Below, piece after piece: positions 34,801-61,892 of a DNA stretch of 64,000 bases. The first letter of the stretch is position 1. Each line of letters begins with the position of its first letter. Below the pieces are notes generated by a model. It was given only the letters and a program-made list of their open reading frames with translations. It searched no databases and was not told the origin of the DNA. The stretch spans positions 11,102,276 to 11,166,275 of the forward strand of contig CM082594.2 of NCBI GenBank assembly GCA_040954595.2. Direction: 5' to 3'. The stretch comes from Balanoglossus misakiensis. Taxonomy: Eukaryota; Animalia; Hemichordata. A program made the translations under genes and the position numbers.

Positions 34801-36719
34801 TTACTTTTTGGAAGCACTGCCACCTTTGCGACTGATCTTCTTGGACTTGTCTATTGTCTTGGGGGGAGGGGCAGCCTCTGCCTGCACATGTCTGCCATAC
34901 AAACTGAAAGAAAGAAGACAGATCTGTTAGCCTAACAATGTCTGTCAACTGCACATTCCTTCTTGACTTGGAACAAGAGGACTATTCTTCCAATCTGTTC
35001 TAAACTATGACACAGTACAATCAAATCAGAACTTACTATTTGTAGGTGTCTGATCTAATGTAATCAAAGACATGTCCAATGCCTGCCTGAAACTGATCAG
35101 CTATTGGAGGAGCCCAAGGGTTATTCTCTCCTTTGAAAAGACGTCTTTCACCAACAAGATCCAAGTTACCTGGAGAGACAAACAAAATCAAAAAGTTGAT
35201 TTTCGAAGGGTCTTGTACATTTACATTCATGAACATCAAATTTGCATTTGATCATTTTAGTATTTTCAACAAATGTTACCATGGTAACCTATGTACCTAG
35301 TTCCGGCGGCAGGACTGTTAATCTGTTGCCTTGGATATGCAGTTCTTTCAACCTTTGCAATTCTCCAATCTCTTTCGGTAAGGATATCAAGTCATTATCT
35401 CTAAGTGCAAGCTGTAGTTGGGAGAAAAAAATAAGACCAAAAGTTAGATAGTTCCAAGCTTAGTGCATTTCAGGATAAGTTTTCCTGAACTCTCAGTGGT
35501 GGCCTAGAATGGGTTCAATCTTGCATTCCTGTCTGGCTGGACAAGTGCCAAGCCGCAAGATATTGATTTCAAGGGTACTTGTACATCATCTACTACTTAC
35601 AATTTCCAGCCTCTGTAGTCGTCCAATGTCACCTGGCAGGATTTCAAAGTCATTGTCACTCAGGTAAAGGGCACGCAGTGATTCTGTGGAGAAATAGCGA
35701 AGCAACATTGAGATGTCAAGAATTTGGACTGATTGGGGTAGTGTTCCCCCATTGACTCCATACACAGTTCTCAGATATGTTTATTTACTGTTCTCATTAA
35801 TTGTTTGTGTGAAGTTCAAGAAAGAACTGACTCACCCATGAGGAAAAAGTTGCCAGGCAAACTCTGTTCATGGAGGTTGTTGTACATCAAATCTAAAATC
35901 TCGAGTTTTGGGAATGCACCGAAACCTCGTGGGAGGCTGTTCAGTCTGTTGACTCTAGAGTACAACAACAAGAAGGATATACAGTCATGATTGTGACCGA
36001 ACAGGAAAAGAGGTTGTGATGATTAATATGCTATATAGGATCACATTACCTTTGTAAGCATCAATTTACATATATCATCCGCTGACATTGGCCAGTACAA
36101 TTTATATGATAGTATGAATTGCTGGTATACAAAACTCACCCAAGATTGAGAATTTTCAGATTCGGCATCGAGCTCAGATTCACTGGAACCTCTTCTATGT
36201 GATTGTTGAATAAATTTAAAGATTCTAGACTTTGCAGTTCCACTATACTTGGAGGTACGACTGTAATGTGGAATACAGAAGAGTTGTAAAGTACACATAG
36301 TACATAATTTTCATATATATAGTAAAGATACATTGTATCACAAATGAAATTGTCTTGAATCCAGATTCTGGATTCCAGACTACAAATGAATATACTTACC
36401 AATAATTCTGTTGTGACTGAGCGTCAGCCTTGTCAAATGTTTTAGTGACACTGTTGACATGTAATAAAACAAATGTAAATCAGGAGATATGTACACATTT
36501 CCACAAGTAATACTGTATAATTGTATTTTGTTGACATTCCAAATATGCTTTTGAAAGCAATAGTTCATAATTCATATCTGCAAAATGAAAACAAGATATT
36601 AACAACTCACAAAGTCCAGGTACATCCATGATATTGGCGATGCCTTTCTCACACAGATCCAGCTCTTCCTGTCCATGTTCTTTGTTTTCCTCAACTTGCT
36701 TTTTCAGAGATTTTGCCAT
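34801..36719 (-). CDS. RSU1: Ras suppressor protein 1 (LRR protein)
   Basis: 8 exons: 36719-36611 ([27 protein letters not shown]), ~36451-36399 (LTLSHNRI), ~36261-36140, ~35954-35836 ([19 protein letters not shown]), ~35683-35601, ~35412-35298, ~35170-35037 ([28 protein letters not shown]) and ~34903-34801 ([26 protein letters not shown]…*). Confidence 0.95.
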
Positions 36720-37305
36720 TTTAGAAGAGAGAAAAATGCAATATCCTCAGTCAATATAAACAGAGAAAGGTCGCACCCACCAAAAGCCAGGAAGTAAACC
36801 GGAAGTGACGAGCAACTCCTGTCTTGGTTAATACTTAATCCGCTGTACAAAATATAGTGCGCCTTAACTGTGCATGTTTTGCTCAAAAAGTTACAATTAT
36901 TTTTATTTAAAACTATATTGACTGGAATAAGACTATACTTTGATATTGTTTACGCAAAAAAGACGTCAGATTAGTGAAAGAAATTGACTGGCGGATGCGT
37001 TTGTAAATGTGTGATAGTTCCAGACACCCATAATTCATTACAAACGAAATGGTGAGTACAACTGAAACATACACATGAGACGTTGCGTTGTTGAAATTCC
37101 TTGCATTTCAGTGTCGCTTTCCTGAATGTGTCATCCGTACATTACGTGGAACTTTTAGAGTTAAGCTTGTGTATGTTCACTTACTGAAATGTATCTTGCA
37201 AACATAATTATTCGTGTTGATAATGACCAGCAGAAGTTTGTTTGACTGTGCGTCGCGTTTCATGAATGAAGCCCTACGCGTGGTGTAATGTACATGAACC
37301 ATGTG

Positions 37306-37493
37306 GGGAGAGGGGGGGGGGGGGGTCCTGGTTTGTCGGCATACACACCTGAAAGTGTGTTCGTGGTTTACAAAATGTAATTACCGTCTCAGTGTAGGAA
37401 TATAAGCAATGTCTTTGGAAGGGCCGCTGAAAGCAGTGTCATTTTGGCCACAGGCTTCCATGCACAGCCATGGGGGGGGGGGGGGGGGGGGGA
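37306..37493. repeat. Two poly-G tracts (~37312-37325 and ~37472-37493) bracketing a 146-nt island
   Basis: Homopolymer G runs directly visible; G-quadruplex potential on the + strand. Confidence 0.85.
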
Positions 37494-38331
37494 CGCTACG
37501 ACCTGACACTCACCTTGGTCAATGTATTATGATAGTCAACAACTCTAAAATACTTGTCATCTGCTCAGAGGAATTTCATTCTGATTTTTTTAACTATTTG
37601 CAGTGATACATGATAAACTTTGGCTTCTGCGCTGACCATTGGAATTGGATGTACCAGGGGACAGAAGATGGAGCGGTAAGCATATGATTACCATAAAAAT
37701 GGTAGTAAATTGGTCGGGTCTGCAAAGTGACAAACCATCTCTGATCTAAACAAACATGCACCAATTAGTTTTCAAAACAAATGAGATACTTGTTCACTGG
37801 TTGGTTTTTGGTTCCACATGTATGTTATACTATAGTAAACTGGACTAACCTTCTTTATACACAGTGGCATATTGGTCTTCTGTTCAGCAATTTAGTTCCA
37901 AATATAGATGTAGTTGGATCTGTGGTAGAATACTTCCAAAATAAGCAAACAATCTAGTCTTGTCCCCTGGTTTAGGCAGCTTGGTAATCCATTCCTTGTA
38001 CAAAGTTCTTTTGGTGTGTGTTCTGCTACGGTCAGCACCTGCTTTGCCCTTGTCTATCTTCAGATGCCATCTGAACTCACTGGGGGGATATAGATGTGTT
38101 TACTTTATGGCACAGTCAATAAATTAAACAGTCTTCATGAGCTGTCAATGTTTTGGTCTCCATGCTGGTATGTTTTACTGATGACACGAGCTGATGTGGA
38201 TATGTATTGGCTGTTGGTGTCTATATTTGGATTAAAGAGGTTCAGCTTCACCACAGACATTCTACTTAGATCGCATATAGTTTTTGAATAAAGAGGTTAG
38301 TTGAAATGCTTATCAGAAACAACAAGGCCAT

Positions 38332-38468
38332 TGCCATCCCTGGGCAAATGTTTGTAGATGCAATCAATATTTGGTGACCTATCTCAGGGCATTCTCATGT
38401 GAAATGCACTGTCTTGCTGTAAATCATTTGTGAGAGATGAAGTGTTTGAAGCAGCACAGTGAACACAT
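38332..38468 (+). ncRNA. Candidate box H/ACA (sca)RNA in a host-gene intron
   Basis: 5' hairpin (ccctg/caggg, caaatgtt/aatatttg); 3' hairpin cactgt 38407-38412 / acagtg 38456-38461 with apical UGAG (CAB-like, 38431-38434), followed by ACA 38463-38465. No canonical ANANNA H box was found. Confidence 0.35.
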
Positions 38469-38850
38469 GCCTCTAAAAGCAGTCCACGATTGCTATCCAT
38501 CATCTACCATGATTGTCCCTGATGTCTGTCTTGATGACACTGAATTTTCATCTGTCATTTCCCACAGCAGAGCTAAACTTCCGGGAGTAGACCATATTTT
38601 CACCACTCGAAGTGTTGACAAGCATTGAACGATGTGAACCACTGCCACCAGTGACTGTGTACAGGTTCCTGGAAACAACTGTGGCAGTCCTAGTCATCTT
38701 GCCTAATACCATGCCATGAAAAACAGGATTTTGACAAGGCAAACAGCAGCAAGTAATCAGCTGTTGAATACATCACAACCAGGTCAGTTTTTGTCTGATC
38801 CATTCCTTGCAATCCTTTCACTCATTCTCAGCATTCTTTCAGTGTGATTA

Positions 38851-39105
38851 CAAGCCTAATGATTACAACTCTTTGCTGAAGGCACAAATTGGCACAATCA
38901 CAACCAGTGGGTTTTTTATTTCAAATTTATTGATATTTTTTTTCTTCTAATTTATGAATCATTTTATTTTGATTTATTTCCTTTCTACATTTTCCTTTTT
39001 TTTATTTAAAAGAATATTTAATTTTACTTTTTCCCCTCAAAATCTACTGGTTCTTGGTTGTTGCCAAGCCAATGACAGTACATGATTATGAGAGCTGAAG
39101 GCTTG
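38851..39105 (+). ncRNA. Box C/D guide RNA, SNORD97/SCARNA97(SNORD133)-like, copy 1 (predicted tRNA-Met(e) Cm34 guide)
   Basis: Terminal stem CAAGCCT/AGGCTTG; box C ATGATTA 38859-38865; D' CTGA 38876-38879; internal stem ttggcacaatcacaaccagtgg / ctactggttcttggttgttgccaa enclosing a ~130-nt U-rich loop; C' ATGACAG 39072-39078; guide GATTATGAGA 39084-39093; D CTGA 39095-39098, 86 nt from the 3' splice site. Confidence 0.85.
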
Positions 39106-39314
39106 CAACTTTCAATGTATAATTTTCGTTTTTTTGTGTGAATATTAAAACGTAATTAATGTTGACCAATGTATTTATCCTCAGATGTATGGCTGTATTT
39201 GCTATTCATAGAAGTCAACTGGAATGTTACTGGACTTCATAGTCCTTGCAGCTGTCCAGGTTAGTAATTTTTATCCACAATTCTGAGTAGTTTCCCGAAA
39301 TCTTATTATGAAAA

Positions 39315-39594
39315 TCCAGGCCTAATGATTAAAACTTGCAACTGAAGGCATTATTGGCAAAAACCACAACTGATATTTATTTATTTTCTTCTTTTGAACT
39401 CTTTGATTTTTACTTCTCTTCAGTTTTTTGTTCATCTCTACATTATTTCTGTTTCAAAATTTTATTTCGTATCTTATTTATGTTTCTCTTTTTTGCAACA
39501 TTACTTTTTCTCTTTGTTTTGTTTTATTCAGTCAAGTTGTTGGTTGATGCCAAGCCAGTGACAGTATACGATTATGAGATCTGAAGGCTTTGGA
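39315..39594 (+). ncRNA. Box C/D guide RNA, SNORD97/SCARNA97-like, copy 2 (predicted tRNA-Met(e) Cm34 guide)
   Basis: Terminal stem TCCAGGCCT/AGGCTTTGGA; C ATGATTA 39325-39331; D' CTGA 39342-39345; internal stem (ttggca/tgccaa, aacca/tggtt, caact/agttg) with U-rich loop; C' GTGACAG 39558-39564; guide GATTATGAGAT 39570-39580; D CTGA 39581-39584, 87 nt from the 3' splice site. Confidence 0.85.
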
Positions 39595-39827
39595 AATCCA
39601 TTTTGCTTTTGTCTCATGTCACAGTTTTGTTCATCACTTTTGCACAGTTTAATCAAAATTTTCTTTTTCAGGGTGAATGGGGTTTTGCTTGGAGCAGCAG
39701 TAGGTGTGGACAGCTTGTACAAATGTAAGTGAAACCCATTTCTTTCCATGATTGACAGAAACCCCCAAGTTAGCAATCCATCATTATACTGGGGTGGCCA
39801 TTTTGTTGCTATGGCAGCAGATGATGA

Positions 39828-40144
39828 TGCCCAATGATGAAACTAAGACGCGTTATGGCAAGGATTGTCTGGACAGATCCCCTCATAGCTTTTATGTCTT
39901 CTTTGCTATATATAATTTGGTCTTTCCCCTTATTAAATTTTGGTTGATTTCCTCATTTTTTTTAACTTTGTTTCGTTTGCTCGCCTTTATGACTGGTCTT
40001 TAATTTCCTTACATTTTTTTTGACATTATTTCTTTGTATATCTTTGTAAAATTTTAGTTTTTTTTGTTTTGACGTTATGATTACTTTGTTAGCTTTGAGA
40101 GTCTGTTCCAGCAGCCAATGACCAAAACAATTAATCTGAGGGCA
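39828..40144 (+). ncRNA. Box C/D RNA, SNORD97-like, copy 3 (retains only the upstream antisense element)
   Basis: Terminal stem TGCCC/GGGCA, extended by an external stem (gcagcagatga/tcatctctgctgt); perfect box C ATGATGA 39834-39840; AGACGCGTTAT 39846-39856; degenerate D'; internal stem ctggacaga...tcatagct / agctttgagagtctgttccag around a U-rich loop; C' ATGACCA 40118-40124; D CTGA 40136-40139. Confidence 0.8.
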
Positions 40145-40848
40145 ATTTTCATCTCTGCTGTTGTTTGTCAGTACTTTGATCGCTGTTAGAAAGGAAAAAT
40201 TTGAAATGAATTTGTCACAAGAATTTATGCCATGGGAAACTGAAATGGGTTGTATTCATTTTTTATTCCCAACAGGTCAAGAACATTAGAGTTGCAGAAA
40301 CATCGTCAGAGAAGAGTCGGTTATTGAAATAGCACCACCAGTGACAAGTTCTACCCGTTTCAAACTCACATTGGGGACAGTTTTGGGAACCTTCAGTATT
40401 TGTAATGTTTACACAAAAGTACCAAATAAATTCATGATGTAGAGAAACAACAATTTGCATACTACTATAATATTCAGTATTGATGTTTGAAATGATTTTA
40501 TTTGACATTTCATGTTGATAATATGAATTTACAAAGTGTTGACAAATATCATAGATGATGCTCTGGAGTATGCCTATTTTATTTTGTCATTTTATTGCAA
40601 GTTTTGGTTGGCTGAATATTCACAAGCCTTAGAATTGAAATGAGCAAGAACTAAAAATATTATGAACATAATAAGTACACAGCTGAGAAAACTTTGGTCA
40701 GTGTACATGCAATTTATTGGCTCTCTCCACTCATTTGCATACATATTGTGCAGTGTGAATTGATGGCAGTAGATACATGTAAAATTACAAGAATTATCAC
40801 ATCTCATGTACAAAGGTTACATTTCAAGTAATTTGATGTTGACACTTT

Positions 40849-43456
40849 TTAAAGTGTAGCTAATCTTTCTACAATTTTCCTGTAGTCATCCATTAGTTCT
40901 TGGAACATTTTTTCTAAATTTTGGTGCCTTTCTTGTTGACTCTGTCCTGCCATAGTTGCTGCCAGCTCTTCGGGTTTCAGAACTTTTCTCATCTTCTCTA
41001 GGTCACTTTTTTCTTTCTGCAGTCGGAAATTCAATGAAATTTGTCAGTGTTATTGCATTTACTCAAGTGAAAGTAACCGGGTTTCATTTGTGTAGAATTT
41101 GTATTCGGTAAAACAAAAGAAGCAATGTGACATTATCTGTGAGGGCGTTCCACATGAAATATTCAAATGTACATATTTCCTCTTTTTTTTTCCAAAGATT
41201 GCCAAGAACACAATTCTTACCTGGTAAGGCATGTTCAATCTTTTCTTGACATCGAGTCTAAACTCTTTAAACTGTTGGACGTTACTTTCATCAGTGACAC
41301 GCAAACGTAGAATTTCATAAATTCTTCTTGTCTGTTTCTGAGAGAAGTGTACAAAATCATGTGAGATATGGTGTATTGGTGGAGGATATTCTTTGTATTA
41401 AGCTTGTATTTTAGTGACAGTGTTTCTAATTAATTGTGTCAAAACTGTTCTATCAGTGATACAACTAGCATCATACTCGTCATTTTACTCACTTTGTTAA
41501 TTTTGAGTTTTTCTTGTGCTTCCTGTACCATGTTTTCCGAGAAGCCTTGATGGAGACATTCAGGTGCAAATGATGACAGATGCATACATGCTTTGCAGTC
41601 AACGAAGTCTCTGAGGCGTATAAAGTCATCCGATGGATCTTCCACTGAAAACAAGGAAAAAACATTTAGAAAATTGCAATATGATTTGGAAATCAGTGTG
41701 TTCTTTGAATGATGTATAGGACAACAAACATATCTTTTATATCATAGAAACTTACCTGTTATGTCCAAGACCTCAAGATCTTGTCTGTAATCTATATAAA
41801 TAGTTTCTAATAACTGAGCACCATGTCCTTGTCTTTGATATGGAGGAAGTACCAACATCTGACTGCAGAGGTAAATATTCATAAATTAGTTGATGTGTCT
41901 TAGCATGTGAGCAAGAAAGGAGTTGTGTATACAGAATTTCAACGGGTCTGCTTAATTTCTTTTACAAATGACACTTGAATATGACTGTAATACGAGTCTA
42001 CATACCTCACCCGTGGTCTGATTTTGTTAGGGTATGCATAATACCTATACACTGTACCATATCCAACAATACTGTATCTAGGTGAACCGTCAAGTGTAAA
42101 CTTCTCAAACCTGTCAATGAAAAAAAAGTTTAACCATTGACCTACATTCCACCTCGTTCTAAAGCAATAACCTTTCACATTTCCCACACCAGTTATCCGC
42201 GACCTCATTACGCGTTACACAACTGTCCAGCTGGGAAGGTTCACCCCACATAACCAGAAGCAGTTGCTTTACCCCAGTAGGCCAAAGCTACATGCAAGAT
42301 AAATGCACAGTAGTCAATTAACTTACAAAAGATAGAATTGCCAACGATCATCGTCCACATCAATGTATGACACAGCATCAATAAACCACCAGAGGAATGT
42401 CTGTAACCTTTCGTGATATTCTCTAAAGCCAGCCACACTGATGTCAACCTTGTAAATTTCAAACTGTCGTTCCACTCCCTCGGTGTTCGTCTTGAAAGAA
42501 TGCAGCAATGTTCCGCTTGGTGTGAAACTTCCATCATTGGACAAGCTGCTCACAAAACTTTCCAGATTGTCCATTGGATGAATACCTAGTTTTTCAATTA
42601 TCATTCTTGTCACATCATCCGCCTGAAAGAGAAAAGACAACCACCAAATTCAAGAATAGTCTTTCATTTCCTCATCTTGTTTATTTCAGCAACATTGCAC
42701 CGCAGAAAAGCAACACCTACCTGCACACCATCATATCTTGCAGGATCGACTTTTTCTGCGCATGATTTTCCAAGATAATAATTTAACTGTGCTGCTGAAT
42801 AGTATAGTTGAATCTTCAGATTCTTGTACCCAAAAATATTCTCACTGAAGGCAAAAAAAAAAGGATTTGACATGTAAGCAGGAAAAAACATCTGAAAAGA
42901 CTGAAACAATTGGGTATCTGGGTACTTATAGAGGTTCTCTTACTTTTGGCCAAAAATTTGATGTGTAAATTCAGGATGGAAAGCTTTGCTGTCGTCATCT
43001 ATATCACTTTGCGTCCTTACTGTAAGATATAAGTGCAGACAAATTAATATCCTGTAAGAGTAGATTCCTCCCAAGCTAGAATTATCTTGATACACACATG
43101 ATAAACATCTCAAACTTTGACTGCCCTACCTAGTTTCATAGTGATCACTTCATTGGCTGAGCAGACGTACTGCTCCATTTCAGTGCGCAACAAGGACATT
43201 TCTGAAATGTACAAAAATGAAATGTTATTTCAGTCAGTAAATTGTACAGTGTAGATGCATTGTTGTTGTCAACTTCAAATTTCATATTGTGTTTAAAAGA
43301 AATCTTTTAACAATTTTGACCTGGAAAGTATTTTTCTTGTATGCTGTGTACTTTATTTACACGGGTGCCTTTCTTAAATAAAAGAAACGTACGACAAACT
43401 TGTAATTTGTGTAATTTTCGACGATTTCAGTAGATTTCCCCTTACTCACCCGCCAT
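40849..43456 (-). CDS. HAT1: Histone acetyltransferase type B catalytic subunit
   Basis: First exon ATGGCGG|GTGAGT (43456-43450); later exons encode FHPEFTHQIFG, ENIFGYKNLKIQLYYSA, YHERLQTFLWWFIDAVSYIDVDDDRW, YRYYAYPNKIRPR, SQMLVLPPYQRQGHG (acetyl-CoA motif A), TVEDPS, RLDVKKRL, ending DYRKIVERLATL*. Confidence 0.96.
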
Positions 43457-57330: not shown

Positions 57331-58122
57331 TCAGCGCTAACTATTTTCTGACCATTTTTCAAGATTTCTGTTTGGATTCCGACTTGTAACCATCTCGTCA
57401 ACCAATCCATCGACCGGGCCATGCATCGGCTCAAGAATTTTCTGTCCAGGGTCTCCAATAGAACATATGAATTATATATCATAGTATGGACATATACAGT
57501 ACAACTTGATCCGTATTGTTAATATTGCAGTAATACTTTATGTATATAGAATCAACATATGTATACCAGGGTTCGTGCAGTGACTTTTTTCATTTTCAAA
57601 TATTGACTGTCTGTCGAAATTCATACCCTTTTGAGATCGAAAATCACGCTGTTTTTTGTAAAATTCACTATTAAGTTTTCGTGTTGTGTAATTTTGAGAA
57701 TGTTGGTGGAGAGTTCTTCGTGTCAAGGGAACGACGTGAATGATGGGGACATGAACTTTTCACCATAAATGGGTCAAATTAACGTTGATATAAACTTTCG
57801 GAAGCTTGTCTGGTTTTTACCAAACACCAGGCAAGTTGCACACACGTACCTCTCAGTAATAACGGTATGAGAGAACTGCAAATATATAAACAGCCGCAGA
57901 GGAATTCGGCGCGATTTTGGCAACAACACTTCACATATTTGAGGCTAAAAGAGTTGACGGAGATTTGTGACTTCTCACCTACTTGGCAAATCGCCAACAA
58001 TATTGTGGCCAAAAATTAGCATTATTTGTTTATTCATTAGCAATTGAAGGACGAGGACCTGAATCATTTTTATTTTTTCAGAAAGTTCCCACGCTGGTGA
58101 TCTGGTCTCTCCGTATGCAAAC

Positions 58123-61100
58123 ATGGCGTTTTATTCTTTATTTCTGCGATGCGTTTTCTTGGCTATTTTCGTCTCTTCAAAAGAAACTTTCGGCAACACT
58201 GGAGGTGCCCCGCGACTTTTACGAGACGGACATGTCGTTTTAGGAGGACTTTTTGATCTGCATGAAGACACATTCATTGCCGATGATTCTCTCGCCCGTG
58301 GACCGATAGAGGAAACGTGTATCGGATTTGATTTGGATGGATTTCTGCTTTCGCAAGCCATGGTCTTCGCTGTCGAAGAAATTAATAATCGTCCGGATAT
58401 TTTACCGAATGTGACCCTTGGATACGACCTGCGCGATATTTGTTCGTCTACATCCCAGGCTTTGATGATGACGTACGGGTTAGTCGTTTCTAACGACGTT
58501 TCCGTCAGTGCCGTCATCGGCGCCAGCGGTTCCGACACCACGATGGCCGTCGCTGAGTTTCTTAACGTGTACAACATACCGGTGATCAGTTACGACGCCA
58601 CGTCATCGCTTCTGGACGATCGGCAAAGGTACAAGTCGTTTCTTCGGACAGTTCCAAGCGATGTCCACCAAGCACTGGCCATGGTCGAAGTAATTCTCCA
58701 CTTCGAATGGGACTGGGTCGGAATTATCGGCGTGGACAACTTCTACGGTCGCCCTGCTTCGGTTGAGCTAAAACGACAGCTCGAAGCTAAAGGTGTATGC
58801 GTTGCTTTCTACGAAATGTTACCACTCAACACGCCCGACGAAACTGTTGTTTCTGTCGTCGATAAAATCGAGCAAAATCCATCGGCCAAAGTGATCGTCA
58901 CATTCACGTACACCAGCGACGCTCACAGAATTATTCAACACTCTGCACAGAGGAATCTTACAGGTGGGTGCAATTTCTGTCATTTCGGTTCTTTCGCACA
59001 TTTTGTCTGATTTCTTAAAACTTTCCTTATTCCCCCTATTGACTCCAAATATTTTTGAACATGTGTTGAGAATGATTTAAGAGAGAAAACGCTGTCGTTA
59101 TTATAGTGTCACACTCCAAGTCTCCTCAACTAATGTTTCATTACAATATTCACAGACCGTATCTTCATAGCGAGTGAGGCCTGGGCGCTGTCAACATCAA
59201 TCGCTGATACACACCCGGAGAAAAAAGCAGCTGAAGGAACATTGGGAATAATATTCCCTGAACAAGAAATTCCGGGGTTTTCGGATTATATTAGGAAATT
59301 GAATCCATTCGGAATTGATGGAGAAAATCCATGGTTGAATATCGCCTGGGAAACATTGTTTAATTGTACGTTGACAAGTAACGATACTTTGTCCCAATAC
59401 ATGGGTGATCTAGATACTAGTACCATGGAAACTGTATCTAACAGCAACGACGAAGTTAGCACAGAAATAAACTCTGTATCTATTACTGGTGAAAGTACAG
59501 GTGAGCTCACAAACAGCGACTGCACAACTGACACGACGTCACCAACACCTCGGCCAATCAGCGACAGTTACACCGAATCGGTCCCAGATCTTTACTCCAC
59601 TGGCGAAACTTCTCCCACACCACCACCGAGCGCAAGTGAAACGCTAGACACCAAGCCACCACCCGGGAGAAATGTTCCGACCACGAGACGACCGTCGTCA
59701 TCGACTGACCCTCCAAACTACTGCACTGGGATGGAATCGTTCACCAACAGCCCAGCCATGGACGCTGTCAAGAATTCCCTTTACATCTACCGCGTCTACC
59801 TGGCAGTATATTCCATCGCGTACGCACTTCATGACATGTTACAATGCACTTCACCTCACGGATTACTTTCCAACGGCTCTTGCCCAAATATGGAAAGTCT
59901 GGAGTCATGGCAACTGATGAAGTACCTCCTCCACGTCAATTTCACCGACCACTCGGGTCATCACATATACTTTGGTGAGGATGGCAGCGTGGACGGTCTG
60001 TATGACATAGTCAGCTGGCAACTTAGGGAAGGTGAGGGCGAAACTAAAGACACTAGTGATGCCGAAGCTGACGATTGTCATGGCAACGGATGCGAAAGTT
60101 TATCATTGGATGTTGTCACTATAGGCCGCCATGACAGTGGTCAGCGCGTTGGCAACCGGCTCGCCATAAATGGCCAATTTCTCTCATGGAAAAACTCGAG
60201 TCAGGTGCCATCGTCTCGGTGCAACGATCCCTGTTTGCCGGGTCAGAGAAGAAACATCATCGTTGGGTTTCCGATTTGTTGCTATGAATGTGTCCATTGC
60301 CCGGAAGGTTCGATGTCAAATGAAACCGGTAAGTATATCGAGAGAAAAAGACTGAGAGATATGTAATTTTCTGTTATCCTATCATATTTTCGTTTAATTT
60401 TTCATCATATTCTTTGCATCATATCGTTTCAGATTCTACTGAATGCATCACGTGTCCACAGGGAACATGGTCCAATGCAGATAACACTGAATGCACGGAG
60501 AAGTATCTGGAATACCTGGCCTGGGATGATCCTACGGCAATCGTTTGTGTTATTCTCATTATCATTGGACTCATCCTGAATATCACCGTCACTGGGGTTT
60601 TTATCTACCACAGGGAGACGCCCGTTGTCAAGGCGTCCAATCGAGAACTGAGCTTTCTCATGCTGGTCGGGTTATTTGTCTGTTTTTGCAGTTCCTTCAC
60701 TGTGATTGGTCGACCGACACGGGTTCAATGTATGGCCCAGGTGCCCCTGCGCAGTGTTAGCTTCACAATGTGCGTGTCTATTCTACTGGTGAAAACGCAC
60801 AGAATCATGACCGTCTTCGAGTCCAAAATCCCCAATGCGCATCGATACAGCTGCCTGGCGAAGACAAAGCTTCAGTTGTTGGCCGTGGGTGCACTGACGG
60901 CCGGTCAGATCTTCATTTCTATCATGTGGTTAGTTATCATGCCCCCGTTACCCATCTATAACACCGATTCTGCCAAACGTGTTATCTACGTGGAGTGTGA
61001 TACCAACTTCTCAGCTCCAATGATTATCATGTTTTGCTACACGTGGGTCATAGCCAGTGTTTGTCTCGCTTTCGCTTTTAAAACACGCAAACTACCCGAG

Positions 61101-61892
61101 AACTTCAACGAAGCCAAATACATCAGTTTTTCCATGCTGGTGTACTTTCTATTGTGGCTAATCTACTTTCCGACATATTTCGGTACAAATGGTCGATTTA
61201 AGGCTCTGTGTCAAGTCATCCTACTTGTCGCGTCCAGTTACGCCTTGTTAATTTGCATTTTCTTTCCAAAATGCCACGTGATCATCTTCACGCCAGAGCT
61301 GAATTGTGCCAGTCACGCGAGGAGAATGACGTTGAACCACGCCGACAGACGGACTTCCGCCCTCATGGCGTTTCAGCGACGACTCAGTCTTTACGATGAT
61401 TTGGAAAGTTGTGGCGAATCGCGAACAGGGGGCGGTGGGAACCGAGGTTCTCGTGATGTGGTGAAGAAGTCAGTATCCAACAACTCCATCCAGTCGCGTT
61501 CATCCCTGCCGCCTGTTGATGAAAACGATTCAGAAGACTTTGAAGACGATGATGACAACAGAAAATCCTCTGACAACGACTTAGCAAATGACACATCACA
61601 GAAACTGGAACCAAACGACAAAACAACTAACGTCTTGTGGAAAATAAACGAAGGATTTGAACCTGATTCTGACGGTGAAACTGCTGACAAGAATGTTTGT
61701 GACTCAGACAGCGGAAACGAAGATGGACTGTCGTCGAACAACGACTGTGATCCAGATGTCGGACAAAACACAATATTGAGTGAAGACGATTCGTCTATAA
61801 TAATTAACTTTCCACCGAACACACATCAACCCATAGAAAACAATGAAGATGAAAACCATGAAATTGAAAAACAAATTCCCCTTCCGAGATAA
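58123..61892 (+). CDS. Class C GPCR, extracellular calcium-sensing receptor / GPRC6A-like
   Basis: 3 exons: 58123-58963 (signal peptide, GHVVLGGLF, AMVFAVEEIN..P.ILPNVTLGY, VIGASGS, FLRTVPSD, WDWVG), 59156-60328 (IASEAW, NPW, VYLAVYSIAYALH, cysteine-rich domain PSSRCNDPC…CCYECVHC) and 60433-61892 (7TM: TPVVKASNRELS, KTHRI, RKLPENFNEAKYISFSM, FFPKC; acidic tail). Confidence 0.93.

Follow-up and report, generated by a model that had tools for sequence, protein, structure and literature searches.

The 64-kb stretch of Balanoglossus misakiensis DNA analysed here (the window) carries three box C/D RNA genes on the + strand (copies 1, 2 and 3, at 38851-39105, 39318-39590 and 39828-40144), each lying in sense orientation in its own intron of a spliced host. 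A scan of 36700-40700 for box C, box D and a terminal stem recovered exactly these three copies, and all three parts are present in each. The features of the cluster are as follows.

36790..40450, + strand: putative non-coding host gene, with both ends and introns 1 and 2 predicted only
38783..40275, + strand: three host introns (38783-39184, 39260-39671, 39725-40275) with GT..AG joints, from run X3
38851..39105, + strand: copy 1; box C at 38859, D' box CTGA at 38876, C' box at 39072, guide 39084-39094, box D at 39095
39318..39590, + strand: copy 2; box C at 39325, D' box CTGA at 39342, C' box at 39558, guide 39570-39580, box D at 39581
39813..39827, + strand: 5' arm of the external intronic stem of copy 3, partner about 40149-40163, -21.0 kcal/mol
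39828..40144, + strand: copy 3, SNORD97-type box C/D RNA gene with the D' element only, 317 nt
39834..39840, + strand: box C of copy 3, ATGATGA
39845..39856, + strand: D'-side element of copy 3, AAGACGCGTTAT (12-mer), identical to vertebrate SNORD97
39858..39861, + strand: putative, degenerate D' box of copy 3, GCAA, 17 nt after box C, placed by the human register
39862..39896, + strand: 5' arm of the inner stem of copy 3, partner about 40086-40116, -26.2 kcal/mol
39897..40085, + strand: pyrimidine-rich loop of copy 3, 189 nt, 71% C+T
40118..40135, + strand: C' box of copy 3 (40118) and 11-nt D-side spacer AAACAATTAAT, with no tRNA-Met anticodon guide
40136..40144, + strand: box D of copy 3, CTGA (40136-40139), and 3' arm of the terminal stem

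Contigs of run X3 skip the three introns listed, with GT..AG ends, and the host is thus spliced, with a single RNA gene in each of these introns. Its longest ATG frame, in a gene model whose ends and first two introns are predicted, is 48 codons, and one of its exons bears small indel alleles at 39690-39695; on both counts the transcript is likely to be non-coding. The cluster is flanked by genes matching STK11IP and Aralar, and with these neighbours and no long frame the host is neither EIF4G2 nor LARP4. One low-depth X3 contig lacks the exon at 39672-39724 and joins the introns of copies 2 and 3, hinting that the host is alternatively spliced. Where the host gene probably begins (36780-36830), a pyrimidine run comes after a CCGGAAGTG motif, a combination typical of snoRNA host and 5'-TOP promoters. 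The CpG observed/expected ratio is 0.72 across 36780-37680 and 0.18 downstream. An ATGATTA and a CTGA about 60 nt apart (37680-37750) lie right at the 5' end of the second predicted intron; the scan found no terminal stem for this pair and Rfam gave no match, and it is probably due to chance. No tRNA gene was found within the 64-kb window. Further along, at 58063-61892, there is a calcium-sensing-receptor-like class C GPCR with few, very large exons, which has its closest matches among enteropneust proteins and near 60.3 kb shows 82%, 75% and 61% identity to proteins of Ptychodera flava, Glandiceps and Saccoglossus, respectively, and the next gene, on the opposite strand, encodes a P450.

Copies 1 and 2 resemble each other closely at one end only. 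The anticodon guide GATTATGAG occurs only at 39084 and 39570, that is, once in each of them. All ten C34 guide positions are identical between the two, as are 13 of 16 positions from C' to D, and blastn matched their 3' ends at 46 of 51 positions. The spacer from C to D' is 10 nt in both and agrees at just 4 of 10 positions, which rules out a shared guide at their CTGA D' boxes. Copies 1 and 2 would, given this guide, direct methylation of C34 in tRNA-Met. Their pyrimidine loops are 129 and 155 nt long (73-77% C+T), and the loops of all three copies, compared with one another, aligned no better than shuffled sequences.

Copy 3 is built differently. As the preliminary description had claimed, it has no anticodon guide, its D-side spacer being A/T-rich, with one C and no G, and it carries the 11-mer AGACGCGTTAT at 39846-39856, which occurs once in the window and in neither of the other copies. 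The full 12-mer, in the 17-nt register from box C, is likewise confined to copy 3. Under a second-order model of the window the 12-mer has a chance of 2e-8 per site, or 6e-6 within the 317 nt of copy 3, and its two CpGs have been retained although the three introns and their exons are poor in CpG (observed/expected 0.27). The D' box had been given as GCAA/GGCA and degenerate; degenerate it is, and GCAA (39858-39861) is the version that agrees with the human register, while GGCA does not hold. GCAA has no terminal GA and so falls outside the NNGA definition of a D' box applied in PMC8053127. The three copies had also been treated as paralogues between which the two antisense elements were divided. 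The division stands, but not the implication that copy 3 is a close duplicate of the others: neither of its ends gave a blastn match to copies 1 or 2 at E up to 1, which rules out a recent tandem duplication of copy 2. What is seen at this locus is a clean reciprocal split, with the C34 guide in copies 1 and 2 and the D' element in copy 3.

The relationship of copy 3 to known RNAs was explored in several ways. The Rfam SNORD97 model (RF01291) aligned to its first 30 nt with the 12-mer intact and the same stem, at 18.3 bits (E 0.89), which is below the gathering score of 45. At the gathering threshold the whole window gave no Rfam match, copy 2 searched alone gave none to SNORD97, and at relaxed thresholds the region 36500-41000, copy 2 and the first two introns yielded chance matches only. 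Aligned by eye, without gaps, copy 3 agrees with the 5' end of human SNORD97 at 28 of 38 positions, with the 12-mer in register, so that the suggested comparison with SNORD97 came out in favour of homology. The statement that human SNORD97 holds both elements, the D' element and the C34 guide, in one molecule was borne out by the Rfam consensus and by sequences in the supplements of PMC4914119 and PMC3349704, and the consensus also has the TGCCC/GGGCA terminal stem found in copy 3. In the older human reference given in those two papers, the D box is ATGA rather than CTGA. Given the human and Rfam matches, and no blastn match to copies 1 and 2, copy 3 is nearer to vertebrate SNORD97 than to its own neighbours; with a low Rfam score and no C34 guide, it is best described as a SNORD97-type homologue and not as a full member of the family.

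Correspondences between human SNORD97 and copy 3 include the terminal stem, the 12-mer, the 17-nt register from C to D', a degenerate D' box followed by GGA, a CTGGA/TCCAG inner stem, the last eight bases and a pyrimidine-rich loop. There are also considerable differences: the C34 guide is present only in the human RNA, the lengths are 142 nt (human) and 317 nt, with a much longer loop in copy 3, the D' boxes are AAGA and GCAA, and the human host is EIF4G2 whereas that of copy 3 is probably non-coding. Copies 1 and 2, for their part, resemble human SCARNA97/SNORD133 and the chicken RNA GGN68 in having the C34 guide, a long pyrimidine-rich loop and, by eye, a near-consensus D' box and a GGCT 3' stem arm. 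Also by eye, the C-to-D' spacer is 12 nt in the vertebrate RNAs and 10 nt in copies 1 and 2, and the C'-to-D spacer 15 and 16 nt, but the D'-side sequences cannot be aligned and the host is not LARP4. A long SCARNA97-like loop is found in all three copies, copy 3 included, which speaks against a clean match of copies to families.

GGN68 has been labelled SNORD97, but it proved to be SCARNA97-like and was dropped as a test of a parallel in birds. It has CGCG before its putative D' box, which copies 1 and 2 and human SNORD133 do not, and for this reason copies 1 and 2 may have lost their D' side independently of human SCARNA97. Ten nucleotides of GGN68 are, by eye, fully complementary to nt 4-13 of chicken elongator tRNA-Met (sequences from PMC3349704 and PMC6601510); this stretch, which overlaps both the inner stem and the putative D' box, is absent from human SNORD133. 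Eight supplements of the chicken snoRNA survey PMC2653536 list no SNORD97. A scan for box C plus the element in 26 of 64 metagenome parts yielded 119 loci, which were discarded as chance matches, none of the 119 being accompanied by a terminal stem or, downstream, by a C34 guide; a viral scan, which served to gauge the chance rate, gave 67 matches.

Several observations bear on whether copy 3 is being maintained. None of 1000 shuffles gave an inner stem as strong as the one present. The external stem was equalled by 5 of 1000 shuffles, whereas copies 1 and 2 have no such stem (441 and 444 of 1000). Intronic C/D RNAs that are distant from the 3' splice site generally depend on an external stem, and copy 3 lies 131 nt from that site, compared with 79 and 81 nt for the other two copies. 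The two haplotypes are strongly divergent across 36600-40600. Just upstream of copy 3, at 39609-39810, the second haplotype differs from the window by 15 substitutions and about 5 indels, or some 10% of positions. Within copy 3 it shows five merged events, all of them in the loop, and no difference at 93 covered non-loop positions, the element stretch 39841-39875 being uncovered (run X2 has gaps at 39521-39608 and 39841-39875 and is uninformative there). The chance of no non-loop change is 1e-4 at the flank rate and 0.09 at the loop rate, figures to be read in the knowledge that the boundaries were drawn post hoc and that all three runs represent one sample. The X3 contig over copy 3 (377 nt, 39915-40291) runs continuously from intron into exon and is silent on the mature RNA. 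Taken together, the boxes, the inner and external stems and the allelic pattern are supportive of maintenance, but not decisive.

The likely partner of the D' element is a tRNA. The proposed perfect complement in tRNA-Arg(ACG) was found in the mouse sequence (from PMC7757669), with which the 11-mer forms 11 of 11 Watson-Crick pairs, the fifth base before D' facing A22, also as a Watson-Crick pair. A second complement that had been suggested, in elongator tRNA-Met and with G-U pairs, was verified as well; here the fifth position is a G-U in both possible registers (G10 and G22). For human SNORD97, two duplex groups connect the D' and D guides with tRNA-Met (Zhang et al. 2023, PMC10576143), and in that study Gm22 and Cm34 are predicted in tRNA-Met, hotspots are given at positions 10, 22 and 34, and the D' guide of SNORD133 is described as diverged; the preprint predicted Gm10 or Gm22. 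The eight SNORD97 rows of its Dataset S4 comprise 335 chimeras with Met-CAT and one with Arg-ACG, and none with Trp. Among 45 of the 104 SNORD97 entries in Dataset S1, at least ten rows, amounting to 94 reads, have tRNA-Met linked to the D' end. By our own conversion, nt 7-14 are included in 83 of these reads, while one lies on nt 14-32 and ten on the 3' half. According to Vitali and Kiss (2019, PMC6601510), Cm34 is partly restored by SCARNA97 on its own, and since human SCARNA97 is without the D' element, the element is not required in cis. It is likely, although unproven, that the element has an independent function.

The reading we prefer, with a probability of roughly 0.55, is that copy 3, having lost the C34 guide and kept the D' element, specifies a stand-alone RNP that would bind precursor tRNAs, elongator tRNA-Met above all, by their D-arm. 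The RNA would be cut from its intron, helped by the external stem, and would assemble into an RNP through its consensus terminal C/D motif. The CGCG core of the element could then anneal to the D-stem of tRNA-Met on either side (nt 7-13 or 21-28) and so would keep the D-arm open. With no GA pair in the D' box, and a G-U at the fifth position whichever register is used, methylation of G10 or G22 would probably be weak or absent. Through its conserved U residues the element would accept tRNA-Arg(ACG) as well. Consistent with such an RNP, the identity to human SNORD97 is concentrated in the element and its register, and the C/D boxes are consensus, the inner and external stems are present and no allelic change falls at a covered position outside the loop. 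Against it, the 3' half of the element (39852-39859) is mostly paired in the folding model.

A rather improbable alternative is that copy 3 is the relic of a dual-guide SNORD97: its C34 guide would have been lost recently, because copies 1 and 2 already supply one, and its D' element, once an accessory in cis, would not yet have decayed. By eye, deleting 4 nt from a C34 guide and substituting one base would be enough to give its spacer, and with as few as two changes needed, the guide may have gone only recently. In C/D RNAs it is common for the other spacer to add pairing in cis (45 of 104 plant sites), and the D' box is degenerate. A relic, however, sits poorly with the intact external stem, with covered non-loop positions free of allelic change, and with the partial restoration of Cm34 by an RNA that has no such element.

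Slightly less probable still is that copy 3 directs genuine methylation at A22 of tRNA-Arg(ACG), and that this tRNA, rather than tRNA-Met, is the target that fixed the 11-mer. The complete Watson-Crick match and the position of A22 would fit, and 4 of the 11 positions are wobbles or mismatches in most of the listed tRNA-Met genes, yet are the same in acorn worm and human. The human chimeras nevertheless fall almost wholly on Met-CAT, the D' box is without GA, and the accessible text of PMC10576143 names no Am22 site in Arg-ACG. Retargeting of the D-side spacer to a new RNA, whose function would now keep the gene, is very unlikely: neither C' nor box D is damaged and the spacer is free of allelic differences, but even a perfect 10-bp partner for its 11 nt would reach only -6.2 kcal/mol, compared with best possible values of -11.2 kcal/mol for the C34 guide and -13.7 kcal/mol for the D' element.

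Much of the background to an RNP acting on the D-arm has already been published, namely the SNORD97 family, its two elements, the crosslinking to tRNA-Met, and a partial asymmetry in human SNORD133 and bird SNORD97. Among the literature matches listed, which left most subscription papers outside their reach, neither a complete reciprocal split nor an invertebrate cluster of several genes was described. PMC6601510 presents bird SNORD97 as the sole exception to an invariant D guide, and as this RNA is reported to be without the D-box guide, it is a possible parallel to copy 3. The split in birds may not be reciprocal, however, since the chicken SCARNA97-type RNA keeps CGCG. A more distant likeness is provided by fungal rRNA snoRNAs (PMC5824354), for which it has been proposed that one double guide gave rise to two clustered single guides, as here; the fungal RNAs have rRNA targets and known methylations, whereas in the acorn worm the target is a tRNA and the role of the second element is putative.

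The cluster is also at odds with what has been published, namely a single gene in the invertebrates surveyed (PMC6601510) and a duplication early in vertebrates. A tentative scenario, which we consider rather unlikely, is that the SNORD97/SCARNA97 duplication predates the split between chordates and ambulacrarians, and that the SNORD97 branch exists for the sake of its D' element, whether for opening the D-arms of several precursor tRNAs in trans or for a so far unrecognised Am22 in tRNA-Arg(ACG). The C34 guide would then be dispensable in that branch, with birds and the present acorn worm as two cases of its loss. SNORD97 is the best-proven tRNA-modifying snoRNA of eukaryotes, but for its second antisense element there are crosslinks and predicted targets only. 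Copy 3 on the one hand, and copies 1 and 2 on the other, represent natural separation-of-function alleles for the role of the D' element and for C34 methylation, and this split makes the question of whether the element has a function of its own directly testable.
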